NCBI GenBank assembly: GCA_964538435.1
Contig: CAZIDX010000004.1
Location: forward strand, 769 to 64,768
Direction: 5' to 3'
From: an uncultured Gammaproteobacteria bacterium
Lineage (GTDB): Bacteria > Patescibacteriota > Patescibacteriia > UBA9934 > GWF2-40-263
DNA length: 64,000 nucleotides
Shown one piece after another: positions 3,464 through 51,683 of this stretch. Each line of letters opens with the position of its first letter. Position 1 is the stretch's first letter. The notes beneath the pieces are model-generated. The model worked only from the letters and a program-made list of their open reading frames with translations, made no database searches and had not been told where the DNA came from. The translations under genes and the position numbers were made by a program.

Positions 3464-3476
3464 CATGGTCATTTAT

Positions 3477-3494
3477 ACGACGATCGACGGTTAT
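3477..3494. repeat. 18-bp direct repeat copy 1 (acgacgatcgacggttat), operator-like, abutting ATG of CDS 3495
   Basis: 16/18 identical to 4053..4070; contains CGATCG core. Confidence 0.5.
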
Positions 3495-4028
3495 ATGCCT
3501 AAGAAAGAATCAAGAAAACGTTCGATGAGTTTTTATTCAAGAGCTTCACAAATTTTGATGGGGATTTTTGAGTATGGAGATTTAGTAATTGAGAATATTC
3601 ATCAGCCAGGATTGGCTTTTCGATATGGGCTTGAGAACGCGATCGAGATTCGTGATTCTAAGGAAAAAGCTCTTCAAAAAAGAGAGCTTCGTCGGTTGGA
3701 AGAAAGGAGATTGGTGAAGATTGATAAAACTGCCAAGTTGTATGTTGTGCGTTTGAGTGATGATGGTTTATTGGAGGTTTTGAGGCAAAAAATTAACCAG
3801 GCATATCCATTACCAGACGGGAGGGATTGCATTGTGGTGTTTGATATTCCTGAGTCAAAAAGAAAGCTTAGGGATGGCTTGAGAAGGCTTTTAAAAGACG
3901 TCGGTTTTTTCTGTATTCAGAGAAGTGTTTGGATGTCTCCATTTGATGCTGGCGAGGCGTTCGCCGAGTTTTTTCGATTTGTTGGAAATGAAGACTGGGT
4001 TAGGGTATACACAGGGATAAGGCATTGA
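3495..4028 (+). CDS. Winged-helix (N-terminal) + Cas2/VapD-like (C-terminal) domain protein, PaaX-like architecture; putative regulator or toxin-like module
   Basis: ORF 3465..4028, ATG 3495 preferred; N-terminal 'RRLEERRLVKIDKTAKLYVVRLSDDG' helix+wing; C-terminal 'CIVVFDIPESKRKLRDGLRRLLKDVGFFCIQRSVWMSPFD' matches Cas2 beta1-alpha1-beta2 pattern. Confidence 0.5.
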   Translation: MPKKESRKRSMSFYSRASQILMGIFEYGDLVIENIHQPGLAFRYGLENAIEIRDSKEKALQKRELRRLEERRLVKIDKTAKLYVVRLSDDGLLEVLRQKINQAYPLPDGRDCIVVFDIPESKRKLRDGLRRLLKDVGFFCIQRSVWMSPFDAGEAFAEFFRFVGNEDWVRVYTGIRH

Positions 4029-7421: not shown

Positions 7422-8738
7422 TTAGAGATCTTTGATGTTTGAAATCCTTCTCAGTTCGATGTTGTCTGTTTTTACTTTGCTCTTTGCTGGGATTGCTGCT
7501 GCTGTGATTCCTAGTCTTGAGGTTTCTACTAGTCTTTTTTGTGTGAGTGGGGCTGAGCGCACTTCTCCTCCTAGGCCTACTTCTCCGATGTAGACAGTTG
7601 GGGTTTGGTCGATCTTGTTTGCAAACGCACTCTTGATAGCTGCGCAGATTGCTAGGTCTGCTGCTGGTTCTGAGAGTTTCATGCCTCCGATCACGTTGAG
7701 ATAGACATCTTTGTCTGACAGTTTGAGGTTGGCTCGTTTGGAAAGAATTGCAGTGAGCATTTGCAAACGGTTTTGATCAAATCCGGATGCGCGGCGGATG
7801 GGGGTTCCGTATGAGCTAGTTTCAACAAGCGCTTGGACCTCGACAAGGAATACACGTGAGCCTTCCATGGTTGCTGCGATGACTGAGCCTGGGGTGGCAG
7901 CGCGCTCTTCTAGAAATCGGGCAGAAGGGTTCTCGACAGGGATCAGGCCTTTTTCTGTCATCTCGAACACACCGATTTCGTCTGTGGCTCCAAAGCGATT
8001 CTTTTTGCTGCGGAGCATGCGGTAGGCATGCACAGGATCTCCTTCGATTTCGATAACAACGTCTACGAGGTGCTCGAGTGTCTTTGGTCCGGCAATAGAA
8101 CCGTCTTTTGTGACTTGGCCTACGAGCAGGATTGAGACTCCTGTGCGTTTTGCAACCTCCATGAGTAGAGCGGTTGCATAGCGGACAAGGGTGGGGGAGC
8201 CGGCAGTGGAGTCGAGTTCGTCTGAGGTGATTGTTTGTACGGAGTCAATAATCGCGAGGGCAGGCTTCTCTTTTTCAATTGTTGCTGCAAGAGTCTCGAT
8301 TGGGAGAGGTTCGAGCACATGAACATGGTCGGTTGGTTTTTCAAGTCGTGCAAAACGTGCGGTGAGCTGACCTGGGGATTCTTCTCCTGAAATGTAGAGC
8401 ACGGTCTCCTTGAGTGATCCAGCGATCGCAGCGACCATGGTGGATTTTCCGATTCCTGGTTCTCCTGAGATGAGGATGAGTGAGCCTTTTACAATTCCAC
8501 CTCCGAGTACACGGTCGGTTTCAGTATCGCCGGTGGGGGTGCGTTTGTGCTCATTCTGCTCAGCAATCTCTTTGAGAGGTTGGCTTTTTGAGGCTGCGGC
8601 AGTGCGCGCAGTTTTAAGAGACGAGCTTTTTTTGCTCGTCCTCCCTTGTTCTTCAGTTAGAGTGCCCCATTTGTCGCATACAAGGCATTTGCCTGCCCAT
8701 TTGGGGGATTGTGCGTCACAGTTTGAACAGATATACAT
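7422..8738 (-). CDS. radA: DNA repair protein RadA/Sms
   Basis: N-terminal C4 zinc ribbon (CSNCDAQSPKWAGKCLVC), GEPGIGKST Walker A, KNRFG motif, Lon-like C-terminus. Confidence 0.9.
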   Translation of the reverse strand: MYICSNCDAQSPKWAGKCLVCDKWGTLTEEQGRTSKKSSSLKTARTAAASKSQPLKEIAEQNEHKRTPTGDTETDRVLGGGIVKGSLILISGEPGIGKSTMVAAIAGSLKETVLYISGEESPGQLTARFARLEKPTDHVHVLEPLPIETLAATIEKEKPALAIIDSVQTITSDELDSTAGSPTLVRYATALLMEVAKRTGVSILLVGQVTKDGSIAGPKTLEHLVDVVIEIEGDPVHAYRMLRSKKNRFGATDEIGVFEMTEKGLIPVENPSARFLEERAATPGSVIAATMEGSRVFLVEVQALVETSSYGTPIRRASGFDQNRLQMLTAILSKRANLKLSDKDVYLNVIGGMKLSEPAADLAICAAIKSAFANKIDQTPTVYIGEVGLGGEVRSAPLTQKRLVETSRLGITAAAIPAKSKVKTDNIELRRISNIKDL

Positions 8739-8741
8739 AGA

Positions 8742-10064
8742 TTATCCTCCTGAGTCAGTACAGTATTTTAAGTAGATTTCAGCGGCTTTTGCTGCATAGT
8801 GAGCGGCTTGTGCTCCAGATCCGTTGTAGGCACACATGGCCATAGCAAGGTCGCCAGTTCGATCAAGTCGTTTTTTTACAAATGTTGCTTGAGCTCTGAG
8901 GGTGTTGCTAATACCTCCCCAGTTTGTTCCACCAGTTGAGAGTTTAGTGTCAAAGTACTCTGCACATGAGTCTAGTGCGACTTGGCAAGTCCAGCATACA
9001 GTGGTGTTACAATCTGGAAATTTTGTTGTGTCAGGCGGCCAGGTTGGGTCATAGGATTCATTGCAGTGCGCAGCAACTTGTTCTCCTCGTGTGTGGTCTC
9101 TGGACACTGTACGCACGCAACATTCTTGTCCAAGGGTTGATTCAAAAGATGTTGGCATGAACTGCGCAATCCCAATTTCCCCACATGGTCCACGCTGCGA
9201 GGAATCGTAGTCAATTGTTCCGCTTGTTTCAATCTGTAGATGAGTTGCAAGCTGGAAACGATCAGCTCCTGTTTCGTCTGCAATAGAGTTAACGACGGCG
9301 GTAAGCTCATCAGTCCAACCAGAAGGTTTTTTTAAAACAGTTGCAGAGCAGGCTTTGACCATCCCTTCGACTCCTTCACAGTTTTCAAGTGAGAATGATG
9401 TAAGCGCATCTTCTGCAATGTTGTCTAACGAGATTGTTCGAAGGCGGACAAGTTCGGGGTTCACTGTCCAAAGAATGAGCCAAGTGCTTGAAAGTAGGAT
9501 AAGGCCAATGACAGCGTTTTTGATGCGCTCCTTTGCTTTTGATGTATCTCCATATCCGCCAGCTGCAGCATACTGAAATCCTCCAATCATGACCATGACG
9601 ATTGCAGCAATGGTGGCTATTCCCAAAATGTACTTATAAGCTCCTGCGATGTAGGCACCCAAGAAGGCGATGTGCAGCACCTTACCATCGACCTCAATGG
9701 CATCTGACAGGTCTATGCCTGGGATTTCAACACTGAGGAGCGGGGTGATGGTTTGTGTGCTGTTGTTAGATACAGCTCCTGTGTTTCCAGGTGCGGTTGA
9801 GTAGCCAGAGTTTGTGCACGTTGTCTTACAATCCATGATGTGGCTTGTGCCATCTGGGCACGAGCAGCCAGCATCAGAGAGAATAGTGGCGCCGCTGTCT
9901 CCGCAGTCTGAAATACATTCGTCCGTTGCATCAACTGAGTGCGCAATATTATCTGAGTCATAACAAGTACAACCTCCAGCAGCAAGAGTGGTCAATGGGA
10001 AAAGGGCACTCAGTGTGAGTGTGGAAAGTGCTAGGAGGATTGAAATTCGTTTTGTTAGTTGCAT
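8742..10064 (-). CDS. Modular exported protein: signal peptide + Cys-rich domain + conserved membrane-hairpin module + lytic transglycosylase (SLT-like) domain
   Basis: Signal peptide; module '...IPGIDLSD...FLGAYIAGAYKYILGIATIAAIVMVMIGGFQYAAAGGYGDTSKAKERIKNAVIGLILLSSTWLILWTVNPELVRL'; SLT-like 'ETSGTIDYDSSQRGPCGEIGIAQFMPTSF'. Confidence 0.6.
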   Translation of the reverse strand: MQLTKRISILLALSTLTLSALFPLTTLAAGGCTCYDSDNIAHSVDATDECISDCGDSGATILSDAGCSCPDGTSHIMDCKTTCTNSGYSTAPGNTGAVSNNSTQTITPLLSVEIPGIDLSDAIEVDGKVLHIAFLGAYIAGAYKYILGIATIAAIVMVMIGGFQYAAAGGYGDTSKAKERIKNAVIGLILLSSTWLILWTVNPELVRLRTISLDNIAEDALTSFSLENCEGVEGMVKACSATVLKKPSGWTDELTAVVNSIADETGADRFQLATHLQIETSGTIDYDSSQRGPCGEIGIAQFMPTSFESTLGQECCVRTVSRDHTRGEQVAAHCNESYDPTWPPDTTKFPDCNTTVCWTCQVALDSCAEYFDTKLSTGGTNWGGISNTLRAQATFVKKRLDRTGDLAMAMCAYNGSGAQAAHYAAKAAEIYLKYCTDSGG

Positions 10065-11044
10065 GATCGAGACATTTTTGGATTTTCAAAATGCCAGGCT
10101 TCTGAGTCGAGCAGGCAAAAGCCCTGTGCTTTCATTGCTGAAATAAGAATGCTGTGCCCTGCATTTTTTCTGCATTTATCTACTGCAGGGTTGTTGTCGC
10201 ATTGTGCTTTTGTTACGCAGGGCGAGCCGCTGCATGTTGCCCACATATCGATAGCACGTCCAGTTGTGTGTGGACAGTTTTCTGCTTTTCCGTCTCGGAG
10301 CATGCAGGCGTAGGTAATCCCATCTTTTGGATCACATGTAGCAGAACCTGGTGGGTTGTTGCAGTATTTGAGAATCAGAGAAGTTTGTTTTTCAACGGTT
10401 CGAAAGCTTGAGGCAATGTAGATGCCATATCCTTGAGCATCTACTTGTGCTGCTGCCGCTTCAATCAAGGGAGCTAAGTCTTTTGGTACTTCATTCACTC
10501 CTGGACCTGTTATGTTTGCTGCAACAGGTGCTTGGAATTCAACTGCTACATTACCACCTGTAATGTTTTCTTCTGATCCAAGGGTTGCAAGGCTGATGTC
10601 GTCTACGACATCCACTTCAACAGGACCAAGGCGAACAAGTTCGGGGTTTACGGTCCAAAGTAGGAGATAGACAGATGCTAAGAGCACAAGACCTGTGATA
10701 GCGTCTTTTATTCTCTTCTTTGCTTTTGATGTTTCTCCATGTCCTCCAGCCAGCGCGTATTGAAGGCCGGCAATCATGATCATGACAATGGCAACAATAA
10801 CAGCTGCGTCAAGCAAGTAATCGTAGATGGCCGAGATGTAATCGGAAAGATAATTTACACTCATGACATTCCCTTTGATGCTGATTTCAGAAAGTTTGAG
10901 TCCGGGGATGTCTACGTTAAGAATAGGGGTCTGGGTTTTGACTGAGCTGGTGGTGGCGTGTGCAACAAGGGGGGAGACGAGAAAGAGTCCAGCGATGAGT
11001 TGGAGGAGGAGGCGTGCTGGTTTTGTGAGGAGAGTTTTTTTCAT
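10055..11044 (-). CDS. Modular exported protein: signal peptide + membrane-hairpin module + peptidase M15 (VanY/LAS-like) domain
   Basis: ORF 10055..11077, start MKKTLLTKP at 11044; shared module '...SDYISAIYDYLL...GLQYALAGGHGETSKAKKRIKDAITGLVLLASVYLLLWTVNPELVRL'; M15 motifs SSFRTVEKQ, HTTGRAIDMW, SEAWHFE. Confidence 0.6.
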   Translation of the reverse strand: MKKTLLTKPARLLLQLIAGLFLVSPLVAHATTSSVKTQTPILNVDIPGLKLSEISIKGNVMSVNYLSDYISAIYDYLLDAAVIVAIVMIMIAGLQYALAGGHGETSKAKKRIKDAITGLVLLASVYLLLWTVNPELVRLGPVEVDVVDDISLATLGSEENITGGNVAVEFQAPVAANITGPGVNEVPKDLAPLIEAAAAQVDAQGYGIYIASSFRTVEKQTSLILKYCNNPPGSATCDPKDGITYACMLRDGKAENCPHTTGRAIDMWATCSGSPCVTKAQCDNNPAVDKCRKNAGHSILISAMKAQGFCLLDSEAWHFENPKMSRSCN

Positions 11045-11045
11045 G

Positions 11046-12413
11046 TTAGTAATCCAGGCAGGCAAGTAGGTGACCACCCTTTGTTTTCCAGCTCATGTGT
11101 ACGTGTGGTCCAGAGGTGTTTCCTGACTGCTCTACAACTTGGCAGTCACAATTTTCAAGTTTGTTTGGGTCTGTGCATGGAGTTCCTTCGACATTGCACC
11201 ATCCGTATTTTGCTGTGGCCCATCCTGCAGGAGCTGTTTGTCCATCACAGCAGCGCCCACCAACATGCCCAATGATGTCTCCTTGTGAAACGGCCTGTCC
11301 AGCAAGAATAGCCCCAGAATCATTTACAAAATCTTTTGCGTGACAAATGGTTATGTAGGCTCCAGCAGCATCACCTGTTCCTTCAAGGTAAATTCGATTT
11401 CCACATTTGTTGTTTGTGTCTTCTTGCTTGGCGTAGGTGACAATACCATCAAAAGGTGCGTACACACTTGAACCCCAACCTGCTCCCCAGTCCAGGTGTC
11501 TGATTTTTTTGTAATCACCGTTTGCTCCGTAGTCAAACCAGTGGTGGTTTCCGCAGGATGGTTGAGCGCCGCCCACGGGGGAAGTAACGCTTTGCGCGAT
11601 TTTGCACTCACCATGATCTTTTGCCTTTGCAACAATAGCATCGCATGTTGGGCGGGGGAGGGATCCGAATTTTGCCCCCTCAAAGCCTCTTGTTGCCATA
11701 TCGAGCTCGAGCTCGTCGACTTCTGTAAGGCGGATGGCGTCAAAAAATGTCGTGTTTGGATTTACGACCCACAAGATAAAGTACACGAAGAAGAGGAGGA
11801 CTAGTCCGATTACAGCGTCTTTTATCCTCTTTTTTGCTTTTCCAGTTTCTCCGTGACCTCCAGCAAAGGCGTATTGCAGACCGCCAATCATGATAATGAC
11901 AATTGAAATGATTGCAGCAATACTCAGAAGATATGTATAGACACCTGTGATGTATTCACCAAGCCAGTTGATTTCCATTTCTTCACCATCTGTGACGATT
12001 CTTGAAAAGTAGACACCTGGAATTTCGACCTCGAGTTCTGGTTCGATGTAGCCTTTTTCTGCATATTCAATATCAGATTTTTTTTGCGTTGTGTAACTAG
12101 CGTTTTCAGCAATGCACACCGCAGTGCAATCAAGTTCAGGCAATTCTCCAGTGGCTGGGCAGTTGCAAATACCCGCGTTTGTTTCCATGGCGTCATCATC
12201 GTTGCAGTCGATGATACATTGGGCCGTACCGCTTACGATTACGAGTTTGTCGCCATCGTAGCATTCACAGGCAAGAGCTTGCGTACAAACAAAAAACACC
12301 CCCATTACTACAGACAGGAATGAAAAAAGACACACGAACTTGAGTCTAAACTTAGTGTTGAGAACGTGTGTCATAACAGGAGAATTATTGAAGGGCAGTG
12401 AGTTGCTCTGCAA
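11046..12413 (-). CDS. Modular exported protein: signal peptide + Cys-rich domain + membrane-hairpin module + peptidase M23 (LytM-like) domain
   Basis: Shared module '...GEYITGVYTYLL...GLQYAFAGGHGETGKAKKRIKDAVIGLVLLFFVYFILWVVNPN'; M23 motifs HLDWGAGWGSSVYAPFDG, ICHAKDF, GDIIGHVGG, SGPHVHMSW; start 12413 or 12374. Confidence 0.6.
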   Translation of the reverse strand: MQSNSLPFNNSPVMTHVLNTKFRLKFVCLFSFLSVVMGVFFVCTQALACECYDGDKLVIVSGTAQCIIDCNDDDAMETNAGICNCPATGELPELDCTAVCIAENASYTTQKKSDIEYAEKGYIEPELEVEIPGVYFSRIVTDGEEMEINWLGEYITGVYTYLLSIAAIISIVIIMIGGLQYAFAGGHGETGKAKKRIKDAVIGLVLLFFVYFILWVVNPNTTFFDAIRLTEVDELELDMATRGFEGAKFGSLPRPTCDAIVAKAKDHGECKIAQSVTSPVGGAQPSCGNHHWFDYGANGDYKKIRHLDWGAGWGSSVYAPFDGIVTYAKQEDTNNKCGNRIYLEGTGDAAGAYITICHAKDFVNDSGAILAGQAVSQGDIIGHVGGRCCDGQTAPAGWATAKYGWCNVEGTPCTDPNKLENCDCQVVEQSGNTSGPHVHMSWKTKGGHLLACLDY

Positions 12414-13038
12414 CGATATCTAGAAGATCAGCTGCATCAAGAGCGCCAACGTGGATTTCGTCGTTGATGAACATGGTTGGTGTGGCTGTAAGCCCTAGTC
12501 CCATGGCTTCCTCAAAATCTTTTTTCACGATTGGGAGTGTGTCGCGTGTATCAAAACAGTTTTGGAATTTTTCAGTATCAAGTTCCAGGTCGGATGCGAT
12601 TTGAGAGAAGGTGGAGTCGCTCAGGAAAGATTGTCTGTTAAACAGTTCGTCATGGTAAGCCCAGAACGCATCTTGCCGGTCTGCGCAATGTGCGGCAATG
12701 GCAGCAGGAGTGGCTTGCGCATGAATAGATTCGTTTGGAAGATCTTTCCACACAATGCGCACATCCGTTGGGTGGGCTGTCATCACAGACACAAGATTTT
12801 CTGCGAGTTCACCACATGCATGGCATTGGAAATCACTATAGACAATGATGGAGACGCTTGCGGTATCGCTTCCCAAAGATGGGTTGATAAATGTCACGCT
12901 TGGCTCAGTTACTTCTTCGTAGGATGCCATGATCTCCTCCCGATCAACTTCGATGGGTTGCAGCCGGTACCAGAAAAAAATCATTACCATTACGGTGAGA
13001 AAAGCGATTGTTAAAAATGTGAGCCATTTATGAGACAT
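12385..13038 (-). CDS. DsbA-like membrane-anchored thiol:disulfide oxidoreductase
   Basis: N-terminal TM, CHAC active-site motif in thioredoxin fold. Confidence 0.65.
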   Translation of the reverse strand: MSHKWLTFLTIAFLTVMVMIFFWYRLQPIEVDREEIMASYEEVTEPSVTFINPSLGSDTASVSIIVYSDFQCHACGELAENLVSVMTAHPTDVRIVWKDLPNESIHAQATPAAIAAHCADRQDAFWAYHDELFNRQSFLSDSTFSQIASDLELDTEKFQNCFDTRDTLPIVKKDFEEAMGLGLTATPTMFINDEIHVGALDAADLLDIVAEQLTALQ

Positions 13039-13050
13039 ACAAGCACTGTC

Positions 13051-14286
13051 TTATTTGAGCATTATGAGTTCGAGTCGACCGCTGTCATTTGTGTAGTAGA
13101 TTTTTGATTCATCAGAGCTAACAGAAAGACTATTCATGGATGTTTCATTGTCGGGGATTGCCAAAAGGGAAGTGTGTCCTGTGTTGAAGTCGATTTTGTA
13201 GAGCACATCTGGGAGGTTGTCGTAAATCGATCGTTGTAGGCCGGCGTTGTCTGGGAGGTCCTGAGGCACAGCACAGTAAGCTGTTGAGCTTGATCCCCAG
13301 GTGCATTTATCAACCCAGGTGTTCAGGCCAAGGCTTCGTCTGTTTTCTCCCATGGTTGATGCGGTTCCGTCAACGATCCAGAGAAGAGGTTTGTTGCTTG
13401 AGTAGTCGCCCACAACAGAGTAGAGGATTTGTTTTCCGTTTGGTGACCAGACTGAGTCAAAGAAAAGACCCTCAACCACAAGCCCTTTGTAGTTTTCGTC
13501 GTTGAGGCCGACAGGGTAGATCATTGCACGATTCAGGCCGCCATAAGATGATCCTGATGTGTCAGCAAAGGCAACGACCTGGTCGTTTGGTGACCAATTT
13601 ACATCAACCTTGTCTTCGTTTTCTCCAAGTGCTTGAAAGCTTTTTACGTTTGATCCGTCGTCGTTTGATGTGACAAGGTAGCGGTTGTTTGGGTCAAGAC
13701 CAATGCTTTTTGCAACAATCTCGTCTGCAACAGGAGAGAAGTCGAAGTCTTCCCAGTGTTGTGGAAGGGTGACTTGTTTTTCTGTGTCAAAGTCATAGAT
13801 GATGTTTGATCCATCAGGGAATTCCATGACCGCTTTTTCTGCGTCTTTATTCCACTCAACAGTTTCAACATCAGGGAATTGCGTATCAGACATGCGTACG
13901 ACATTTCCGTCTTCATCGATGGTGTAGAACCTGCCGTCTGTGTCGTCGTAATAGTTCATTGACTGACCATCTCCGCTGAGTGTGGCATTGTATACCGCTC
14001 CGGTTGTAAGGGAGGTTGTTTCTGTCACGCTTCCACGAGCAACTTCATCTGCTTCAGCTAAGGTTCCGGTTCCTGTGTCAGTGGTGTCGTCGTTGGTGAA
14101 GTCAGAAAAGACGCCGTCCATTGAAAACGGAAGTCCAGTGGTTGTGTCTGTTGTTGCGGTGTCGTCTTCAACGGTTGCTTCTGGAATGAAGTCAGCAACA
14201 AACATTCTGTACATTACGAAGGCAATGATAACAACTGAGAGAAGAAATCCAATGATGAGTAAAATGCGTTTTGTTCGTTCATTCAT
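13051..14286 (-). CDS. Membrane-anchored beta-propeller (TolB/PD40-like) protein with Thr/Asp-rich linker
   Basis: N-terminal TM; repeated 'D-G-x' beta-propeller-like segments; same operon as PG-hydrolase triad. Confidence 0.45.
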   Translation of the reverse strand: MNERTKRILLIIGFLLSVVIIAFVMYRMFVADFIPEATVEDDTATTDTTTGLPFSMDGVFSDFTNDDTTDTGTGTLAEADEVARGSVTETTSLTTGAVYNATLSGDGQSMNYYDDTDGRFYTIDEDGNVVRMSDTQFPDVETVEWNKDAEKAVMEFPDGSNIIYDFDTEKQVTLPQHWEDFDFSPVADEIVAKSIGLDPNNRYLVTSNDDGSNVKSFQALGENEDKVDVNWSPNDQVVAFADTSGSSYGGLNRAMIYPVGLNDENYKGLVVEGLFFDSVWSPNGKQILYSVVGDYSSNKPLLWIVDGTASTMGENRRSLGLNTWVDKCTWGSSSTAYCAVPQDLPDNAGLQRSIYDNLPDVLYKIDFNTGHTSLLAIPDNETSMNSLSVSSDESKIYYTNDSGRLELIMLK

Positions 14287-14292
14287 ATGGTT

Positions 14293-15285
14293 CTAAAAAA
14301 TGCCAAGCGCTGAGTATAGTATACCACCCAGACACATGTTTCCGCCGCCGCTTCCAATAGCGTTTAAAATAAATGCAGGGCCTTGTGAGAGGTATTGGTA
14401 GTAGTCAAAACCTGCGCACATGCCAACGGAAAAAATTGCAAAGATAATGAAGATGAGAGCTAAGTCTGCGGCAATAAGAAGACCAGCTAAGATGTTAGCT
14501 TGTGGGTCAACGGGCATTGGGATTGGGTCCCAGGAAAGAGGGGAGATGAAAGGGTCTTTTCCTTGTCGCATTCCTCGTCCGTAAATGAGTTCAAGGTTGA
14601 GCCAACCAAATGTAAAGATGTAAAAAAGGATATCAACTAAGGTTGAGATTCCGGTTGTTCCAATATCAAGACACCCTGCAAGAAGGTCGATGACGTAAAT
14701 GATTCCACGTTTTACTCCTGCTTCAACTTTGCGTTTGACGGCTTTTCGAAGGCGCTGTTTTTGTTTTTCCATCATTGCCTCAAGCTCGTTTTTTGCGTCT
14801 TGGTTGTTTGTGCTTGCTTGCCTGGCTTTGAGGTTGGCCATTTGAGATCGGAGTTGGCTCACGGGTGTTGGGTCCACTTCTCCTGTTCCTCGTGGTTGCA
14901 TTGATTCAGGGGTGTCTCTGTCGATGTCTCGCTGCGCTGCCTGTGCTTCTGGTGTGCGCAGGTTGAGAGGTTGTTGTTGTGGGATTTTGTTTGGACCCAC
15001 GTCATTTGGGTTTCGTATTCCAAGATTAAATGCTTTGTTTAGACCACGACCAACTCTTGAGCCGGTTACGCCACGCGCAATTCCTTCTGCGTTTCCAGTG
15101 TTTGCTTGTTTGATGCCTCGTTGGTAGGCTTGGGCCATGTTTTTTCCGCCGTGTTTTTGTGTGGCAGCTTGTTCTTTGTCACTAAAAATCGTACCAACAA
15201 GTCCTTCGTTGATGTTTCGTTTTGCGTGTCGGTTCTGTGCGAGCTTTTGCTTGTGTCCGATTTGTTGTGCTGTGGCATTAGCCAT
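14293..15285 (-). CDS. Hypothetical protein with disordered basic/Q-rich N-half and multi-TM C-half
   Basis: ORF; hydrophobic C-terminus with 3-4 predicted TM segments; first gene of the minus-strand operon. Confidence 0.4.
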   Translation of the reverse strand: MANATAQQIGHKQKLAQNRHAKRNINEGLVGTIFSDKEQAATQKHGGKNMAQAYQRGIKQANTGNAEGIARGVTGSRVGRGLNKAFNLGIRNPNDVGPNKIPQQQPLNLRTPEAQAAQRDIDRDTPESMQPRGTGEVDPTPVSQLRSQMANLKARQASTNNQDAKNELEAMMEKQKQRLRKAVKRKVEAGVKRGIIYVIDLLAGCLDIGTTGISTLVDILFYIFTFGWLNLELIYGRGMRQGKDPFISPLSWDPIPMPVDPQANILAGLLIAADLALIFIIFAIFSVGMCAGFDYYQYLSQGPAFILNAIGSGGGNMCLGGILYSALGIF

Positions 15286-15291
15286 AACCTC

Positions 15292-17787
15292 CTATTTGCG
15301 CGGTTTAGTGACTGAGATCGTTTTGTTTTTTAGATTCACTTTGAGTTTCTTTGGTTTGTCTTTTTTTGTAAGTCGCTCTGCAATTTTGTGTTCGATGTGT
15401 GTTTGGATTTGGTTTCGGATGTTGCGCGCGCCGTAGGATGGGTCTGCAAGTGTGACAAGGTGGGGGATCAGGCTGTCGTGCACTTGGAGTTCCAGTCCTT
15501 GATCTGAAAGCCTGTCTGTTAGCTCGCCCAGCTGCTTGCGACAAATGTCGTGGAGCACGTCTTCTGTGAGGGGGTCAAACACGCAAACGTGATCGATGCG
15601 GTTGATAAGTTCTGGTCGCATGCGTTCCTCGAGTTCTTGTTTGAGATCTGTGTTTAGCGTCATCTTTCGTTCAGCGTGAGAGCCTTGGAATCCCATATCT
15701 CCTTGACCAAAACGTTCGAGGCCAATGTTTGATGTTAGGATGATAATTGCGTTTTTGAAGTTCACTTTGCGGCCGGTTGCATCTGTGAGTTCTCCTTCTT
15801 CCAAGACTTGAAGGAGGAGGTTTTGAACATCACGGTGAGCTTTTTCGATTTCATCAAAAAGTACAACTGAGTACGGGCGTTGCTTGATGCGGTCAGTAAG
15901 GTTGGCGTTTTCTTTGTAGCCAACATACCCTGCTGGCGCACCGATGAGCTTGGACATGGTAAAGCCTTCTGAATACTCGGACATGTCCAGGCGAATGAAG
16001 TTTTGTTTTCCGAGAAAGAGTGTTTCTGCAACTGTTTTGGCGAGCTCTGTTTTTCCTACACCTGAAGGACCAAGGAACAGAAACGATGCCAGAGGTCGGT
16101 CGGGGTGGGAGACGCCGGTTTTTGCTCGTTTGAGTGCGCCTGATACGCGGTCAATCACATTGTCCTGACCTAGCACGCGTGCGCAGAGTGATCCGTGAAG
16201 GGATTGAAGCTTTGATGTGTTGTCGATCAGAATGTCGTCGATTGGAATACCTGTGATACGCGCGACTACTGCAGCCACGTCGTTTTCTGAGATAACAGGA
16301 ACAGGTCCAACATCGTCAGTTATGCTTGCGCGCGCGATTTGTTCTTTGACACGATCTTCTTCGTCTTTGAGTTCGACTGCGTCAAGAAAACGTTCTTCAA
16401 TAACAGCTTGTCGCTTGGTGTCTTGAACTTTACGAAGTTCTTCTTCGAGTTTTCGTTGAAGGTTTTTTGGGGTTGGGTCTGTGCGCTTGATGTGCGTGGC
16501 AGCGGCAGCTTCGTCAATAAGATCAATGGCTTTGTCTGGGAGGTGCTTGTCCTGGATGTAGCGCTCAGACATTTTTACGGCTTGTTCTAAGGCGTCTGGT
16601 GCAATGCGGACGCGGTGATAGTTTTCATAAAAAGGAGCAATGCCTTGGAGGATCTCGAGTGTTTTTTCAGGTGTTGGCTCGTCAACTAATACAGATTGGA
16701 AGCGGCGTTCAAGTGCACTGTCTGATTCAATGTGTTTTTTGTATTCAGCTGGGGTTGTGGCTCCAATGCAGCGAATCTCTCCGCGAGAGAGCGCGGGTTT
16801 TAAGATGTTGGCTGCGTCCATTGAGCCTGATGCTGCACCTGCTCCGACAATGGTGTGGATTTCATCGACAAATAAAATAATGTCATCATCCTTTTTCACT
16901 TCTTCAATGATTTGCTTGAGGCGCCCTTCAAATTCTCCTCGATACATGGTCCCTGCAATGAGCATGGCCATATCAATGGCGTAGATGCGTTTTGTTTGAA
17001 GCACAGGTGGGACGCGGCCTTCTGTGATGAGTTTTGCCAGCCCCTCAACAATGGCTGTTTTCCCAACGCCTGGTTCGCCCAGTAGGAGAGGGTTGTTTTT
17101 TGTTCTGCGGCAAACGATTTCCATGAGACGTTCAATCTCGCGCTCTCGGCCAATGACGGGATCAATTTTTTTCTGCACTTCTTTTGAGGTGAGTTCTCGA
17201 CTGAAGTATTCAAGAGCGGCTACTTTTTGCTCACCCGCTTTTTCTTCAGTGAGGTTTTTTTCCTGTTGTCCTGATGGTGCAATGAGCATGCCTCCTTCTG
17301 GTGGAATGCTGTCTGTGAGCTCAGGGAATTTTGAAGTACTTTTTAGAACAATGGAAAGTTGATTGCGGAGTTCTTTTAGGTCAGCGCTGAGCACTTCAAA
17401 AAGTTGCCCTACATTTGGGCTGTCGATTTGAATCATTCCTGAGAGGAGGTGCTCTGTTCCTACGTAGCGATGGTTGTAGACGTTTGCAGTGAGGACGGCC
17501 TTTTCTACGATGCGCTTGGCATCATCTGAAAGGTTAAGGGACATGTCTACAGGTGGTGTGCTGGTGCCTGCTCCTTGTTTAGCTCCAACAAGTTTTCTGA
17601 GAGCTGGGGTTTTTACTCCTGATTTTTTGAGGATTTCTGCTCCAATACAACCTTTTTGAGTCCCAAGTGCCCAGAGGAGGTGTTCGGGTTGGATGGTTTT
17701 TTCGTCTGTTTCAACAACAAAGCAAAGCGCGCGCGTAAGCACGTTTTTCAGGTGTGATGAGAACTTGTCGACAATGTCTTGTGGCAT
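15292..17787 (-). CDS. clpC: Clp/Hsp100 AAA+ chaperone, ClpC-like (two AAA modules, short middle domain)
   Basis: Clp_N repeats; [25 protein letters not shown]; second P-loop [16 protein letters not shown]; length 831 aa and short M-domain favour ClpC over ClpB. Confidence 0.8.
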
Positions 17788-17789
17788 AG

Positions 17790-18674
17790 TTAGTCAAGCA
17801 TCCCCCTGAGCTTTTTAATGCGATCTTCAATCGGTGGGTGAGTTGAGAAAAGTGATTCGAACTTTTTTGTCACATGTGGATCGAATGGGTTGGCAAGAAA
17901 CATGTGAGCGGTTGCATGATTGGCTTTGACAAGTGGTTTGTCATGCGTGGCGATTTTTTGCAGCGCGCTTGCGAGGCCTTCTGGGTATCGGGTGAGGAGG
18001 GAAGCAGAAGCGTCGGCAAGGTATTCACGTGAGCGCGAGACAGCAAGTTTAATCATTTGTGCAAACAGCGGTGAGAGCATGGCGAGCACGATCCCGATGA
18101 TGATGAGAGGCAAGGCTCCTTTGTTGTCTCGTCCACGTCCTCCAAAGATGAATGTGCGCATGAGAATGTCTGAGAGGAGCAGTACGACTCCGACAAGCAC
18201 AACGACAATCGTCATGACGCGAATGTCGTAGTTTTTTACGTGTGAGATTTCATGTGCGAGCACGCCTTCGAGTTCTTGCTTGGTCATGATTTGCATGAGG
18301 CCAGTTGTGACGGCAACGGAAGCGTGTTCTGGATCGCGGCCAGCAGCAAAGGCGTTTGGAGAAGGGTCGTTTATCACGTAGATTTTTGGTGTTTGTATTC
18401 CAGCGGTGATAGCAAGATTTTCTACCATGCGAAATAACTGTGGGTTGTCTTGCTTCTCGATTTCTTTTGCCCCTGCGGTTGCGAGTGCGACTTTATCGCC
18501 GCGGTAGTAACCGATGAGGTTCATGAGCGTTGCAATCATTACTGCGCCAATGAGTCCGTAGTTTCCGGTTTCGGTTGCCTGGCCAAACACCCAGCCTAGA
18601 AACACAATCATGACCGTGAAGATCACGATCAGGATCCATGTTTTGCGTTTGTTTGCGTCAATCTGTGAGTACAC
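17790..18674 (-). CDS. htpX: Zinc metalloprotease HtpX (M48)
   Basis: HEISHVKN HExxH motif, 4 TM, typical lemA-htpX pairing. Confidence 0.85.
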   Translation of the reverse strand: MYSQIDANKRKTWILIVIFTVMIVFLGWVFGQATETGNYGLIGAVMIATLMNLIGYYRGDKVALATAGAKEIEKQDNPQLFRMVENLAITAGIQTPKIYVINDPSPNAFAAGRDPEHASVAVTTGLMQIMTKQELEGVLAHEISHVKNYDIRVMTIVVVLVGVVLLLSDILMRTFIFGGRGRDNKGALPLIIIGIVLAMLSPLFAQMIKLAVSRSREYLADASASLLTRYPEGLASALQKIATHDKPLVKANHATAHMFLANPFDPHVTKKFESLFSTHPPIEDRIKKLRGMLD

Positions 18675-18679
18675 ACGCT

Positions 18680-19231
18680 TTAGAACTCAACGGTTGGGGC
18701 TTCGTTTGCAACATCTGGTGCATCAAAGAACTCTCGGTCTTTGAATCCGAACATGCCTGCAATGAGGTTGGTTGGGAAGACTTGGAGCTTGGTGTTGAAG
18801 TCGCGAACGTTTGAGTTGTAGAAGCGACGAGAGGCCTGAATCTTATCTTCAGCGTCTGTGAGTTCGTGCTGAAGGTTCAGGAAGTTTTGTGAAGCTTGAA
18901 GCTGCGGGTAGTTTTCTGATACAGCAAAGAGAGATTTGAGCGTGTCTGAGAGCATGTTCTCTGTTTGAGCTTGCTCCTTCATGTCCTTGGCTCCCATGGC
19001 TGCAGCGCGCGCCTCAGTCACTTTTGTGAATACACTGTCTTCGTGCTTGGCATAGCCTTTGACTGTGTTGACCAGGTTTGGAATGAGGTCGTATCGGCGC
19101 TTGAGTTGCACCTCGATATCAGACCATGCTTCTTCTACGCGATTGCGGGAGCGAATGAGTCCGTTGTATGTTAAAATGAGCCACACAATGACAACTCCGG
19201 CGATTATTACGAGTGCCCAGATGAGTTCCAT
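18680..19231 (-). CDS. lemA: LemA family protein
   Basis: ORF 18680..19294 (TTG); likely start MELIWALV at 19231; LIRSRNRVEEAWSDIEVQLKRRYDLIPNLV signature. Confidence 0.75.
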   Translation of the reverse strand: MELIWALVIIAGVVIVWLILTYNGLIRSRNRVEEAWSDIEVQLKRRYDLIPNLVNTVKGYAKHEDSVFTKVTEARAAAMGAKDMKEQAQTENMLSDTLKSLFAVSENYPQLQASQNFLNLQHELTDAEDKIQASRRFYNSNVRDFNTKLQVFPTNLIAGMFGFKDREFFDAPDVANEAPTVEF

Positions 19232-34623: not shown

Positions 34624-36582
34624 TTATCCAATCTTTACTGTAAATACATGGCTTGGAGCCTTGTTCGCACGGTCTTTTAGGTCCTGGAACCTACCAAAGG
34701 CAGGTGAGTCTTTTCGGAGTCGAATGTCGCCTAGATCCATAGGTGCATTCTTCAATGCATCAAATGCTTTTTTCATATCAGATTGACCACCAAGCATCTT
34801 CTTAAAGAATCCCTTTAGACCCTTTTCGCTTGTACCAAGCTGAAGAAAATCGTTCCAGGTATTTGGCATTCCAAATGTTTCCATGCTTGTACCTCCACCA
34901 CTCTTTGCTTCATCCATGGCAATGCCTCCTTTAACCATTTCATACCACGCCTTGATTCCGTCGAGTTGTTCGACTGACATGCCAAGTTCTGCTGCAGCAG
35001 CATCAATAACTGCTGAGTCTACAGCAACTTCTTCTTCAGCAAACCACTCTTCCATATCATCGTCTTCTGCTTCTACAGCTGCTTCTGCCACGCCTTCTGC
35101 CCCAGTCTCTGCTTCATCTTCTTCTGTTTCTTTGATATATCCTTCGACTTCTTTTCCATCAAGAATGTCGAGGGTTTGTTTGAGAACATCTTTTTGAGCT
35201 TCTGAAGTGCTTTCTTGACCTAGCATGAAGTCAATGAATTCACGCACTCCTTCTTCGCTTCCGTCATTGGCCATGTCAAGAAGTTGGTCTTGGAGCTCTG
35301 TTTTTGCAGCCGCCTCTTCTTGCTCAACTGAGAAATCAAGCAAAATTCCGCGTTCGCCTAGTTCTGCTGCTTCTTCAGAGAGCTCGTTGAGTGTGTCGAG
35401 GTAGCCACCAGTTTGGTCCATGACAGTTGCTTGTTCGTCTGCATCGTCATCGTCCCAGTCATCCATTCCAAATCCAAGCTGCTCTCCATAATGGGCTGCC
35501 CAGCCGGTTGGATCAGGTAGGCGCTTTGCAGCTCGTTTTAGATGCATTCCCATTGACCATTTTGAGCGATCGATTTGGTCTAATCGATCTTCAATTTCAT
35601 GTGTTTGCTCTGCGATTTGAGATTCTGCTTTTTCTTCTGTCTCTGCAAGAGCTGCGCTGAGTTTTTCAACGTTTCTTAGCATTGGCAGTACAATCTGGTG
35701 CTTTTTCTTTTCGGTGATAAAGGCATTCAACTTCATTGTTTCTGCTGCACTGAGATAGCCTTTGTTTTTATCAAACTTTTCTTCAAGAGCTCGGATTTGA
35801 CCATCAAGCTCGTCGATGCGTCCCTGTGTTGCATCAGCACCTTCCTGGTATACAGCTGAAAATTCTGGCACAACAACACCTTCTGCGTTTGCTCGAGCTT
35901 TGTCAGCGTTGAATTCTCTTCGGTTTTCTTCTCTAATCGCTCCGCTACGTTCATAGGCTGCCGCGCTAGCAAGAAGTGACTTGGCGTCAGCGATTGTTTT
36001 GTCATGCAGTGACGCTGCTTCATCTACATCCACTTGTGCTTTTCGTGCTGCAAGATTTAGTTCGGATAGTTTTGGCCTGTTGGCAATCACTTCTTGCAGC
36101 TGCTTTGGTTTCATTTTCTTAAGCTCAGAAATTTTTGCCGTAATAACTTCACCTGACTTGTCTCCAGCTGCTACTGCATCTAGAAGAGTAAGGGTTTTAA
36201 CTGCTCCAGCAGCCTGCTTGTAGATCTCTTGATCAGCTTTTTCAGTGATTCCCATTGCTACTAGAGACGCTTCTAGTTGGTCATCAAAGGTTGATTGTAG
36301 ATCTGCAACAGTTGGTGCAGATTTTTCTCGAATCTGAACAAAGTTTTCCGGCACAATCACAAATCCTTCTTCTGATTTTAGTGTGTGCTTGCCGTCTTCA
36401 TTGGCAACAAGAGTGAATTCAACCTTGTTTTCTCCAATTTGGATTTCCATTGTTTCCCCAACAGAAAGCTCAGGAAGTTCCTTTTTTGCAGCCCCCTCCT
36501 GGTTATCTTTGCCAGCTTGTGCCTCTTGAGCATCTTTTAGCTCTTTTGGGTCAACAGCTCGCGCTTCGGCAGATTTTGCCAT
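34624..36582 (-). CDS. Hypothetical large acidic coiled-coil protein
   Basis: 652 aa, Glu/Asp/Ala-rich, no recognisable catalytic motif. Confidence 0.45.
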   Translation of the reverse strand: MAKSAEARAVDPKELKDAQEAQAGKDNQEGAAKKELPELSVGETMEIQIGENKVEFTLVANEDGKHTLKSEEGFVIVPENFVQIREKSAPTVADLQSTFDDQLEASLVAMGITEKADQEIYKQAAGAVKTLTLLDAVAAGDKSGEVITAKISELKKMKPKQLQEVIANRPKLSELNLAARKAQVDVDEAASLHDKTIADAKSLLASAAAYERSGAIREENRREFNADKARANAEGVVVPEFSAVYQEGADATQGRIDELDGQIRALEEKFDKNKGYLSAAETMKLNAFITEKKKHQIVLPMLRNVEKLSAALAETEEKAESQIAEQTHEIEDRLDQIDRSKWSMGMHLKRAAKRLPDPTGWAAHYGEQLGFGMDDWDDDDADEQATVMDQTGGYLDTLNELSEEAAELGERGILLDFSVEQEEAAAKTELQDQLLDMANDGSEEGVREFIDFMLGQESTSEAQKDVLKQTLDILDGKEVEGYIKETEEDEAETGAEGVAEAAVEAEDDDMEEWFAEEEVAVDSAVIDAAAAELGMSVEQLDGIKAWYEMVKGGIAMDEAKSGGGTSMETFGMPNTWNDFLQLGTSEKGLKGFFKKMLGGQSDMKKAFDALKNAPMDLGDIRLRKDSPAFGRFQDLKDRANKAPSHVFTVKIG

Positions 36583-46500: not shown

Positions 46501-49500
46501 TTATTCTTCAGATGGTGGTGGGGCAAGGTCTTTTGGTAGCTCATAGCCCCCAAAGACGCGTTGGACCATTCCTTCTGCAATATCTGTGTTGAAACGGACG
46601 CGCTCGGCAAGTTTTGCATACTCTGGAGTGTTCTGGAGTCCTTCCTCTGCCATGTTCTCGAGTACGCCCCGCTGCTCAAGGGCATAGACCATTTGACGCA
46701 TAACGCGTTCTCCCTGCGTGTTCCAATCGTTGTCGTAGCCTTTGTCTCGGAAGGCTTCGTAGAGCTGGTCCTTTGGCACACCGAACTCGTTTGCAGCATC
46801 TGTCATTTCTGATTTGTTTGCGAAGAAGCCGATGATGCGTGCGGCTGTAACTTCACCTTCATCGTTATAACGGAAACGGATTTTGTTTTCATCTCCCACA
46901 AACTTTTTAAGAGCTTCGGATGATCCTCCCTGTGGTGATTCAGGGGTTGGTGGTGCTTCAACTGGTGGGGGAGGAGTTGGTTGCGGACCTGCTTTTAGGT
47001 TTTGTTGCAGAGTGTCAGGTTTTTCTGGAGCTCCTGCGCTCGCTGTTGAATTCATGTTTTCAGATAGGTTTGCCGATGCTACCACAATGTCGGCGTCAGC
47101 CATGGCTTGCTGCACAATTGGATTTCCTGCGTCAAGGTATCTTCCGTATTCTGCAAGTTCTTGTGCGATTTGTTGTTTGAGAGCCAGAGCTTCACCAGAG
47201 CCACCTTCTCCAACACCCTCTAGCGCACGTAGGGCCTTTTGCATGACAAAGATCTTTGTTGCGCTGTCTTGGATTTGACTTGAGCTTTCAAGAACACTTG
47301 CTTCTGTAGCTTCTTCCCATCCTTCAACAAGAAGACCTTGAGCACTTTCCACAACAGAAGGTTGTGGGTTTTCTAGTAGCGCTTGGAAGTTTTCAATGTG
47401 TGGTCGTCCTGATGCGTCCAGTGTGAAAGAAACTTCACCAACTCCTTCAACGTTTAAGGATTCGATTGGTGGGATTGCATCAGCTTCAGGGTCGAAGTGA
47501 ACAATTTTATCGTAGTGTGTGAAGAATCCTTTGAGTTCTTGGATTGTTTCGCTTTGCTCATCAATGATTCCAAATTGTTTTAACGCATAATAGTGCATTT
47601 CTGCAGTTGAGATTGTTTCCATTGCTTCGGCAGTTTCTAGCAGGTTGTTTTCTTGCAGTGTTTCCAGTAATTGGTGATATCCAGCGAGGTACTCGGCATT
47701 GTGCTGGAAGATTTCAGTGTACTGTCCTGCTAATTCTTGGTGCATTTCAAGCAAGTGCTGAGTTCCTCCATACATTGCTTCGACTTGAGCAAGTTCCTCT
47801 GCAGAGAGTTCGACGTTATCAAGAGCAAGTCCTTCGACAATATCGGTTGAGTCAGATGCGTATTCAAAGTTGATTGAAGATCCGTCTTCTAGGTCGACTG
47901 TTCCGACACCGGTCCCACCTGGGGCTTCGCGTGGGATTTGGGCGATAAGCTGTTCGGTTGGGTTTGGTGGGTTGCCGTGTTCGTAGATAAATCCTTCAGC
48001 GCGAAGTTCGTCCATGCTGAGTACATCTGGTGTATCGGAGCTGATATCAACAAAACCGATATCAAGACCACCTTCGGTTGCGGTTGCAACTACGGATAGA
48101 TTTCCAATGGCTTCTGTGGCTAATCGGGTGTCACCTCCAGTGCGGACAAGTCCTTCTGCACGTGCTGCTGTGAGAGCTTGCTGGTTTGCCCAAGCGTCCA
48201 CATCACCCTCGCCTGAGAATCCAAAACCTTCTGGGTTCGCTTTGAGTTGGGAGGTGATGAGTCCGATGATGCTGTTGTGCTCGGAATCTGCTGCAACGGT
48301 TCCCATTTGGAGTTTTTCAAGATTAAGGCTTGAGCCTTCTGCCGCGTCTGGAGCAACTGTTGCTTCTGTGTTTGTCTCAGGGGAGGCAGGGGTTGCTTCT
48401 TTTGTAATCGCAGCTTCAGTTTCGGGTGCTGGCTCTGCTTCGGTTGGTGCCCCTGTTTCTGTTGCTGCTTCTGCACTGTCTGTGATTTCAGCTTCAGAGT
48501 CGCTTGAGAACAGATCGTTAAACCGCGTGAAGTTTTCAGCTAGGTTGCTCTTGATGGCTTCTGTTGCTCCAAGTTCTTGGAATTTGTCTATTGATTCAGA
48601 AAGGGAGCTTAAAACACCTTCATCCATTGCTTCGGCTCCAGCCAGGAATCCAAGACCAGTGGCTGTGGCAATGGTTCCGAGGGCCTGTGCTCGGTTCATT
48701 GTGCGCTTCAACCCTGTGTCAGCGTTGTCTCCGTATTTGAGTTTTTCGTAGGTCTCTTGAGCGCCGAATACGAACATTTCATTGAAGTAGCTATCTGTTC
48801 GTTTTCCTTCTTCCATTTCAGCAGTGACCTTTTTATGCCTTTCGTAATATTTGAAACCAGCAAGAACACCCACTCGAGCGATGTTGAGGCCAGACATTGC
48901 TAGCATCGAGTTTATGGTTTGCTTGAGAACCTCTGTGTTCTTGATGCGATTATCAATGGCTGTCTGCAGCGCTTCGTCCATTTCTGCGCGCATATTTTCA
49001 CCAGCATCATCGACTTTCTCCCCATAGGTTTCAATAATTTCGTCCAGCTTGGCTTTCATTTCAGCTTTTTTTTCTGGTGTAAGGTGCTTTGATGATTCAA
49101 TCGCTTGAGCAAGAGCGGCTTTTTTCTGTTCAACAGGATTTGGTTTTTCGCCATCCTCTTCAATAACTTCTTGCGCTTTTTCTATTGCATCGAGGATTCG
49201 ATTACGTTCTTTTTTGGTGAAGATTTTTTGAGAAATATATTTTGGGACGTCAACAAAGCCTTTGAGACCGAAAATATGCAAAGGCACAGCCATACCAACC
49301 CCTCCCACAGATAAAACAGCGTCTGTCACTGTTTCTTCAGCGGTTTCTTTTTCTTCCTGTTTTACTTCACCTGTTGCTTCTCTTCGGATGCGTTTTCCAA
49401 TCGCTCGTGCAACGTTCATGAGCTTGTCTCGTGTGCTGGCAGGTGTTTCTTCTGATGGTTCTTCTGCTGGTTGCTCGCCTTCAGGCGAAGGTTCACCCTC

Positions 49501-51310: not shown

Positions 51311-51515
51311 AATTGGTTTCGCCTTCGCTCGAACCTTGCTCGGATCTTGCTGCGGGGGTTTGGGGCGGCCACGAGGTCGTAGGTTAAAAACTCGCAGTAA
51401 ATGTTTTTAAACTACGACCTCGAATGGCCGTTTGGCGTCCTGGGCCTATAGGTGGGGTGGTGGGGCTCTGCGACGTGTCGGCACGTCGAGTGCCTCACGT
51501 CGCCATTTCCACGGG
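51311..51515 (+). repeat. Family-1 structured interspersed repeat, copy 3 (hairpins 51370-51422 and 51470-51503), preceded by CT-rich tract 51283-51308
   Basis: Alignment with copies 1 and 2. Confidence 0.7.
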
Positions 51516-51592
51516 GGATTCGGTTGTGTAAACAAAGAAGCACCCGGAGACGAGCTGCGGGTGCAACTTGTCTCGCGGGTGCGAGAGGGGGG

Positions 51593-51668
51593 TGGGGCCG
51601 GCTGCGGGACTCGAACCCGGAATCTGCTGATTACAAATCAGCTGCTCTACCAATTGAGCTAAGCCGGC
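51593..51668 (-). tRNA. tRNA-Thr (anticodon UGU)
   Basis: RC gives GCCGGCT acceptor, D-arm GCTCAATTGGTAGAGC, anticodon stem GCTGA/TCAGC loop TTTGTAA, T-arm CCGGGTTCGAGTCCCGG, CCA; hairpin+U-run downstream on minus. Confidence 0.85.
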
Positions 51669-51683
51669 TGAGTCGTCTTGAGG

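Follow-up and report, generated by a model that had tools for sequence, protein, structure and literature searches.

The 64-kb stretch of DNA analysed here (64,000 nucleotides of contig CAZIDX010000004.1, referred to hereafter as the window) comes from a member of the Patescibacteria, class ABY1, near Candidatus Uhrbacteria, and contains three adjacent genes whose products join one and the same membrane hairpin to three different cell-wall hydrolases. What is this hairpin, and why should enzymes of different fold be mounted on it? The initial annotation, made from the letters of the window, had proposed three overlapping or adjacent minus-strand genes, each encoding a signal peptide and a conserved module, and a check of the open reading frames (ORFs) placed all three where they had been described (genes 1 to 3; Table 1). 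We found that the module is the VirB2-like pilin domain of Patescibacteria and that the enzymes attached to it are exchanged from genome to genome at one conserved slot; the role that we favour, tentatively, is in a type IV secretion system (T4SS).

A three-way alignment of the proteins delimited a shared module of about 109 aa with 46 invariant positions. When a hidden Markov model (HMM) of the module was run against all six-frame ORFs of the window, these three genes alone were matched (E 1e-57 to 1e-59), and because the next-best ORF scored E 0.86 the match lies far beyond chance. The motif first given for the end of the module, LW(T/V)VNPELVRL, holds for genes 1 and 2 and fails for gene 3, which reads LWVVNPNTTFF. 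An explanation that had to be considered at the outset is that a single gene was mis-assembled into three, or that the resemblance is accidental. The module copies are 53-56% identical in protein and about 60% identical in DNA and share no identical stretch of more than 15 nt, which rules out a collapsed repeat or an artefactual duplication. Each copy leads into a different C-terminal fold, a separate Logan assembly (SRR8146440) is 100% identical across 13,441 bp spanning the cluster, and orthologous arrays of two and three genes are present in other metagenome-assembled genomes. We therefore give the artefact explanation, which had been named in advance as a way in which the proposal could fail, a negligible probability.

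Against the Pfam family PF18895 (T4SS_pilin), for which the gathering threshold is 26.6 bits, the three proteins scored 34.6, 37.9 and 36.4 bits (gene 2 = 37.9). The shared module is PF18895, the VirB2-like pilin domain of Patescibacteria. Weaker matches to TrbC/VirB2 (PF04956), DUF6112 and NCBIfam NF045849 ('Mbov_0395 family pilin-like conjugal transfer protein') recurred, and NCBI names relatives 'TrbC/VirB2 family protein' or 'pilin'. The resemblance to the VirB2/TrbC pilins of T4SS suspected in the initial annotation was thus borne out by all three proteins. Its view of the module as unrecognised was not: the domain is curated in Pfam and carries pilin names at NCBI, and the outcome that had been foreseen as damaging, a common annotated domain, has in part come about. 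Two other identities were tried and rejected. A holin-like anchor, also suggested at first, has no family match in Pfam or NCBIfam, and the hairpin sits inside a large exported protein in a chromosomal housekeeping setting. A linker of the SPOR or LysM type was discarded with the identification of the module as PF18895.

The fusion is not peculiar to the window. The module profile was run as an HMM against 1.84 billion cluster representatives, an exhaustive scan in which 21,730 proteins passed E <= 1e-3 and 4,791 passed E <= 1e-10; a word-indexed homologue search with the same profile was too insensitive and found 3 short proteins only. Among the best 150 of the 21,730 almost all share the layout seen in the window: they are 300-600 aa long, and the module occupies roughly residues 35-145 or 100-230. 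A Pfam scan for partner domains covered 107 of these 150, of which 102 matched PF18895. The partners were Peptidase_C39_2 (18), VanY (14), NlpC/P60 (13), M15 (11), M23 (9), M15_4 (8), C70 (8), SLT (6), Amidase_2 (3) and Glucosaminidase (2), and the combination of module and interchangeable wall hydrolase is a general property of this subfamily. In a set of 144 single-module proteins (the best 150 and the 3 short matches, less 9 multi-module proteins) an N-domain of about 100 aa (median 6 Cys) was present in 103, and the tail after the module had a median length of 215 aa with a median of 9 Cys. The nine multi-module proteins (P0006, P0019, P0025, P0035, P0066, P0082, P0099, P0125 and P0138; 420-640 aa) carry 2-4 pilin-type modules in tandem and would form a polytopic chain of hairpins.

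Profiles, catalytic residues and predicted folds together identify the C-terminal domains, hereafter the heads, as SLT/lysozyme-like in gene 1, M15/VanY-type in gene 2 and M23 in gene 3, in agreement with the three hydrolase folds (SLT, M15 and M23) read from the window at first. Pfam alone is weak for two of them (SLT, E 0.012; VanY, 22.7 bits against a cut-off of 25). Orthologues of gene 2 exceed the VanY cut-off, at 29.3 and 38.2 bits, and a profile built from gene 2 orthologues matched LysB4 (E 4.7e-4), the L-Ala-D-Glu peptidase Ply500 and VanX in the PDB. The motifs SxxR...Q, H-x6-D and E-x2-H are intact in gene 2, and residues R215, Q220, H259, D266, E315 and H318 are invariant in 13 homologues. 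The gene 3 head lies above the Pfam threshold for M23, has the M23 fold in prediction and keeps the metal and catalytic residues (H...D, the catalytic H and HxH). For gene 1, the head profile returned noise only from PDB sequences and fold comparison was required; the head has a predicted lysozyme-like fold, the catalytic Glu and the GxxQ and AYNxG motifs. With their catalytic residues retained, all three heads look catalytically competent, and between them they would cut both glycan strands (SLT/lysozyme-like) and peptide stems.

Each protein begins with a hydrophobic segment ending in an AxA-like site (read by eye), predicted to be a Sec-type signal peptide. Hydropathy placed two more strongly hydrophobic stretches in each, separated by a loop with 4-5 Lys/Arg. 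AlphaFold2 models contained antiparallel helices at residues 137-171 and 177-204 of the gene 3 product (mean predicted local distance difference test score, pLDDT, 86) and at 134-167 and 174-201 of the gene 1 product (mean pLDDT 61.6), with the PxLxVxIPG segment forming a short beta-hairpin before the helices and the VNP motif and a short strand following them. The basic loop is expected to be cytoplasmic, which would leave the N-terminal 8-Cys domain and the C-terminal enzyme both outside the membrane. Hydropathy, loop charge and the modelled hairpin thus agree on the exported two-helix arrangement, with flanking domains outside, that had been deduced earlier.

The cysteines follow the same division. 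None of the 52 Cys of the three proteins falls within the hairpin: 2 belong to the signal peptide of gene 3 and 50 to the parts predicted to be outside. Every domain has an even number of them, with 8 in either N-domain and 12, 10 and 12 in the three heads. This distribution is consistent with disulfide bonds formed outside the cell and with the presence, just upstream, of a gene for a membrane-anchored DsbA-like protein. The Cys-rich N-domain, attributed from the start to two of the three proteins, is common to genes 1 and 3, with 8 Cys in each copy. BLAST aligns the two copies at E 9e-5, and no Pfam family matched the domain even when the limit was relaxed to E 1.

Scanning GTDB species genomes with the 3-sequence module alignment gave 17 loci, mostly labelled Candidatus Uhrbacteria or Parcubacteria/Patescibacteria group, with some third-party annotation (TPA) assemblies labelled Gammaproteobacteria; the Uhrbacteria belong to class ABY1 (supplement, PMC12102498). 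The gene order is conserved as lemA, M48 peptidase (htpX), clpC, small transmembrane protein, beta-propeller, DsbA, one to three pilin-hydrolases, radA and recG, and it is kept in relatives with RadA merely 50-73% identical. In 15 of the 17 loci, including loci with other neighbours, the DsbA-like gene ends no more than about 250 nt before the first pilin-hydrolase gene, so that the partnership with DsbA noticed in the window proved to be strongly conserved. Syntenic orthologues of the beta-propeller are 39-90% identical in Uhrbacteria-like genomes.

What fills the slot varies. It holds a single gene with a VanY head in L002 and L007, an M23 head in L005 and L024, an Amidase_2 head in L027 and an M15_4 head in L028, while two heads are found in L003 (VanY and Amidase_2), L004 (M23 and C39_2), L009 (C39_2 and a head of unknown type) and L014 (M23 and NlpC/P60-like). 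The window has three (M23, M15/VanY and SLT-like), as does its closest relative, L026, with flanking genes 84-93% identical to those of the window. In L026, NlpC/P60 is followed by orthologues of gene 2 (84%) and gene 1 (72%). The product at position 1 aligns with its counterpart in the window over the N-domain and hairpin alone (64%), after which NlpC/P60 replaces M23; this is a clean head replacement at an orthologous position. The array also evolves faster than its flanks, with 72-84% identity in L026 compared to 90-93%. The heads, which the initial annotation had called interchangeable within the window, are therefore exchanged both across the family and at orthologous positions.

The genomic connection with type IV secretion comes from the relatives. 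In four of them (L003, L005, L014 and L024) a virB4 gene (PF19044, E ~1e-29) is found at a distance of 6-8 kb, the order being array, radA, recG, comF-like gene, small transmembrane protein and VirB4-type ATPase, and in L024 TraC-like and PrgI/VirB3-like genes follow virB4. This layout is the pattern reported for ABY1, in which T4SS loci include comF, recG and radA (Quinonero-Coronel et al. 2025, PMC12102498). The same study describes tandem VirB2 arrays of 2-11 genes with identity of at most 54%, finds VirB2-bearing genomes to be mostly without VirB1, and records that peptidase and lysozyme homologues adjoining virB4 are essential in Southlakia epibionticum; its supplement gives VirB2 matches without lengths. 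Beyond recG in L028, at the place where other relatives carry the comF-virB4 cluster, a serine recombinase (Resolvase/Recombinase domains) is encoded at 17647-19023, which hints at rearrangement of that region.

We tentatively favour the view that the proteins are hairpin-tethered, disulfide-stabilised wall hydrolases serving the T4SS or pilus of the lineage, a role that, argued from sequence and gene context, we would place somewhat short of probable. Sec export and insertion of the hairpin would come first, and DsbA would then oxidise the outside domains. The hairpin would hold three complementary wall-cutting activities at the membrane surface, and the enzymes may be recruited to, or built into, the site of T4SS pilus assembly, because their tether is the pilin module of the lineage's own T4SS. 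There they would supply the function of VirB1, as PrgK (LytM, SLT and CHAP), TraG and CwlT do in other monoderm systems. They could optionally enter the pilus as well, and with VirB2-type geometry the two termini would then face outward together with the extra domains that they carry. The cell's own wall would be opened in this way and possibly also that of a host cell that it touches, and exchange of heads among relatives would fit adaptation to different wall chemistries.

Several observations weigh against a role in type IV secretion. Homology to canonical VirB2 was not demonstrable: the module profile compared with an alignment of MPF_T VirB2 (5 sequences built from plasmid records) gave E 0.23 in hhalign, PF04956 remained below threshold (15.4 bits, cut-off 27.9), and among PDB sequences the module profile found no pilin, the matches being a designed coiled coil and PsbZ. 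Fold searches with the hairpin speak neither way, since generic helical hairpins score as well as pilins. By profile score, then, the module can be placed in PF18895 but not in the canonical TrbC/VirB2 family. A search of all ORFs of at least 150 aa in the window with Pfam, NCBIfam and for Walker-A motifs revealed no VirB4, VirD4, VirB6 or VirB3 and nothing else recognisable as a T4SS gene, nor did any turn up in the 10 kb downstream of the array in L026 or in L028. The array is placed among housekeeping genes (clpC, radA). On a rough geometric estimate, moreover, a head of 20-25 kDa and an N-domain on every subunit would be hard to fit on the surface of a VirB2-type pilus.

The setting would also suit housekeeping autolysins, the pilin-like hairpin being a mere membrane anchor for hydrolases of growth and division (an endopeptidase, an enzyme of carboxy- or dipeptidase type and a glycan cleaver) with no part in a T4SS. 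The slot belongs to a vertically inherited housekeeping neighbourhood (lemA-htpX-clpC ... radA-recG), T4SS genes are absent from the window and from the vicinity of the array in L026 and L028, the beta-propeller encoded alongside is TolB-like, a single copy is common among relatives, and a genome that makes peptidoglycan (FtsW/RodA, at 62832-63962) requires such enzymes. However, enzyme type and copy number differ at the same slot even in close relatives, the faster divergence of the array than of its flanks would be unusual for core growth enzymes, the anchor belongs to a T4SS pilin family and is not a generic transmembrane helix, and four relatives have a virB4 cluster at a distance of 6-8 kb. 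We consider autolysins unlikely, if far from implausible. A bolder version of the T4SS reading would have the proteins act as modular VirB2-like pilins that the T4SS extracts into the pilus, its tip or its base, displaying swappable hydrolases that drill through the host wall. We think this version distinctly unlikely.

Exchange of heads behind a conserved N-terminal half, together with varying copy number, also recalls polymorphic contact weapons or host-lysis effectors, in which the N-domain and hairpin would deliver swappable wall-degrading heads to host or competitor bacteria in the manner of LXG, Rhs or CdiA proteins with no need of a pilus polymer. Cultivated Patescibacteria are epibiotic or parasitic (PMC11665869), which suits a weapon. 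On the other hand the genes abut or overlap, with gaps of at most 12 nt and no small immunity-like genes between or after them, and because immunity genes are absent we rate this reading low. The heads are ordinary peptidoglycan hydrolases and not toxins, the proteins are predicted to remain embedded in the membrane unless extracted, and the producer has peptidoglycan of its own and would be exposed to the enzymes. Service to a T4SS as tethered hydrolases is the reading that we retain, with the reservation already expressed.

Table 1. Positions in the window of the pilin-hydrolase genes, their domains and the genes that flank them
Feature	Coordinates	Strand	Description
Gene 1	8742..10064	-	440 aa: signal peptide, 8-Cys N-domain, T4SS_pilin hairpin, SLT/lysozyme-like (GH23-type) head
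Gene 1, shared module	9417..9746	-	aa 107-216: PxLxVxIPG beta-hairpin, helix 1, basic loop, helix 2, VNP motif
Gene 1, Cys-rich N-domain	9747..9980	-	aa 29-106, 8 Cys; no Pfam family
Gene 2	10055..11044	-	329 aa: signal peptide, T4SS_pilin hairpin, M15/VanY-type (LAS) peptidase head; N-domain absent
Gene 2, shared module	10604..10930	-	aa 39-147
Gene 3	11046..12413	-	Signal peptide, 8-Cys N-domain, T4SS_pilin hairpin, M23 (LytM-type) head with Cys-rich insert
Gene 3, shared module	11718..12044	-	aa 124-232 in the 455-aa form
Gene 3, Cys-rich N-domain	12045..12275	-	8 Cys; predicted small beta/alpha domain, pLDDT 75-92
DsbA-like thiol-disulfide oxidoreductase, membrane-anchored (CHAC)	12385..13038	-	Thioredoxin_4 E 1.6e-23, DSBA E 3.7e-14
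PD40/TolB-like beta-propeller, N-terminal anchor	13051..14286	-	PD40 21.0 bits (cut-off 20.9), weak TolB match
330-aa protein	14293..15285	-	Basic disordered N-terminal half, 3-4 hydrophobic helices C-terminally; no Pfam/NCBIfam match
radA	7422..8738	-	Conserved downstream flank of the slot
clpC-type AAA+ chaperone gene	15292..17787	-	Conserved upstream flank of the slot

As shown in Table 1, the array is packed together with its neighbours. The operon first drawn around it, with DsbA, the beta-propeller and a multi-transmembrane protein, stands as a co-directional cluster, but its extent was underestimated: the run reaches from lemA (19294) to radA (7422), with gaps of at most 12 nt inside 8742-15292. 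For gene 3 the longest ORF is 455 aa, while the public gene call starts at the ATG at 12374 and gives 442 aa, which is probably the true start. The 330-aa membrane protein has no family match even at E 1. Orthologues of it were found in L002, L003, L005, L014, L024 and L026, and it is present in every syntenic locus; it evolves fast, being 72% identical in the closest relative compared to 90-93% for its neighbours.

Two genes on the plus strand bear on exported, Cys-rich proteins. The product of 116-1363, called a thioredoxin-CcdA fusion at first, has a signal peptide, a thioredoxin-like part with CPHC and a polytopic membrane part whose hydrophobic segments contain Cys. Its matches to thioredoxin folds were weak (DSBA, E 0.0018; glutaredoxin-like, E 2.9e-4), and it may be the redox partner of the exported, Cys-rich proteins. 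Another candidate substrate of the Dsb system is encoded at 1656-2717, an acidic protein of 353 aa that is rich in Cys, has a single hydrophobic segment near its N-terminus and matches no family even at E 1. Beside recG, at 3465-4028 (plus strand), lies a 187-aa protein with a PaaX_M (Cas2-like) domain, with no CRISPR-Cas context seen around it; the same arrangement is found in L024 at 12981-13544.

Further from the array, a block at 51500-53000 has a G+C content of 62-65% in a genome of about 47% and begins at a tRNA-Thr gene (51593-51668). Two ORFs there, 51684-53276 and 53477-54322 (minus strand; 530 aa and 281 aa), have no Pfam or NCBIfam family, and the block may be a foreign insert at the tRNA site. 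The minus-strand genes at 46501-49617 (1038 aa) and 34624-36582 (652 aa) encode proteins with no convincing family and no Walker A motif, the former with a single sub-threshold NCBIfam match (23.4 bits, cut-off 53.7); both look acidic and partly low-complexity, possibly coiled-coil. GC skew was positive on the plus strand in every 2-kb bin of 1-64000, often 0.2-0.3, whatever the strand of the genes. The strand asymmetry of the window is strong, and because the skew never changes sign neither an origin nor a terminus lies within it.

Much of bacterial diversity falls within the Patescibacteria, which live attached to other microbes. In the one species tested their T4SS proved essential (PMC10633639), and its role has been called 'completely unknown' (PMC11665869). 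Pilin-family proteins that carry wall hydrolases in one large lineage offer a testable route by which a pilus could pass through the cell's own wall and perhaps that of the host. Because PF18895 proteins here carry hydrolases, counts of 'VirB2' made with PF18895 mix plain pilins with enzyme fusions. The heads, moreover, amount to a collection of peptidoglycan hydrolases, rich in disulfides and perhaps adapted to particular wall chemistries. Should display on the pilus prove true, this would be the first enzyme-armed T4SS pilus and a new mode of host-wall penetration, and it would explain how pilus-bearing T4SS loci of the lineage can do without a separate VirB1.

How far, then, does the array resemble systems already described? 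With LXG, Rhs and CdiA-CT proteins it shares a conserved N-terminal part and C-terminal heads that are swapped among close relatives; unlike them it has no adjacent immunity gene, its heads are standard peptidoglycan hydrolases and its products are predicted integral membrane proteins. Modular type IV pilins, such as PilB and PilC of Streptococcus sanguinis, carry a functional module on a pilin scaffold and are displayed by the filament. In that case pilin class, fold and machinery are unrelated to those considered here (type IV pili and not T4SS), and the modules are adhesive and not wall-hydrolytic.

The TrbC/VirB2/TraA pilins have the same signal peptide, two hydrophobic helices, short basic loop and both ends outside, and some members of the present family match PF04956 weakly, yet there is no significant profile similarity to the module. 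Canonical TrbC/VirB2 proteins are about 70-120 aa when mature, whereas those of the array, at 329-455 aa, are 3-4 times larger. Folded domains lie on one side of the hairpin or on both, and the helices are bordered by additional conserved segments, PxLxVxIPG ahead of helix 1 and VNPxL behind helix 2. The VirB1-type hydrolases PrgK of pCF10, TraG of pIP501 and CwlT of ICEBs1 are likewise membrane-anchored, extracytoplasmic and multi-activity, with the same mix of glycan- and peptide-cleaving enzymes as the array; PrgK combines LytM, SLT and CHAP. They differ in having a single N-terminal transmembrane helix and several enzymes per polypeptide, in place of a pilin-type hairpin and one enzyme per paralogue. 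Their genes also sit inside the T4SS operon, whereas those described here lie between dsbA and radA, with radA, recG and comF separating the array from the nearest virB4 in relatives.

Closest of all are the arrays of VirB2-like pilins in Patescibacteria (Wang et al. 2023, PMC10633639; PMC12102498), which have the same PF18895 domain in the same phylum. PF18895, these arrays, the hydrolases of monoderm T4SS and the individual enzyme families are already known. For the fusion of pilin to hydrolase and the partnership with DsbA we found no description in the literature searched, most subscription journals lying outside it, and both are visible in database annotations. The claim that the arrangement is not a described system therefore survives for the hydrolase fusion, which was found in no paper searched, and falls for the array as such, tandem VirB2-like arrays near recG and radA having been published (PMC12102498). 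The published arrays consist of tandem, divergent paralogues with a maximum identity of 54%, compared to 53-56% here, and in ABY1 the T4SS neighbourhood contains recG and radA, as it does here. Unlike them, the present array adjoins DsbA and not virB4, and the survey does not note that some VirB2 matches themselves carry a hydrolase (PMC12102498). The published proteins are presented as VirB2-like subunits with attached domains unmentioned (PMC10633639, PMC12102498), whereas each pilin module described here bears a hydrolase of 180-240 aa, and two of the three bear an 8-Cys N-domain as well.

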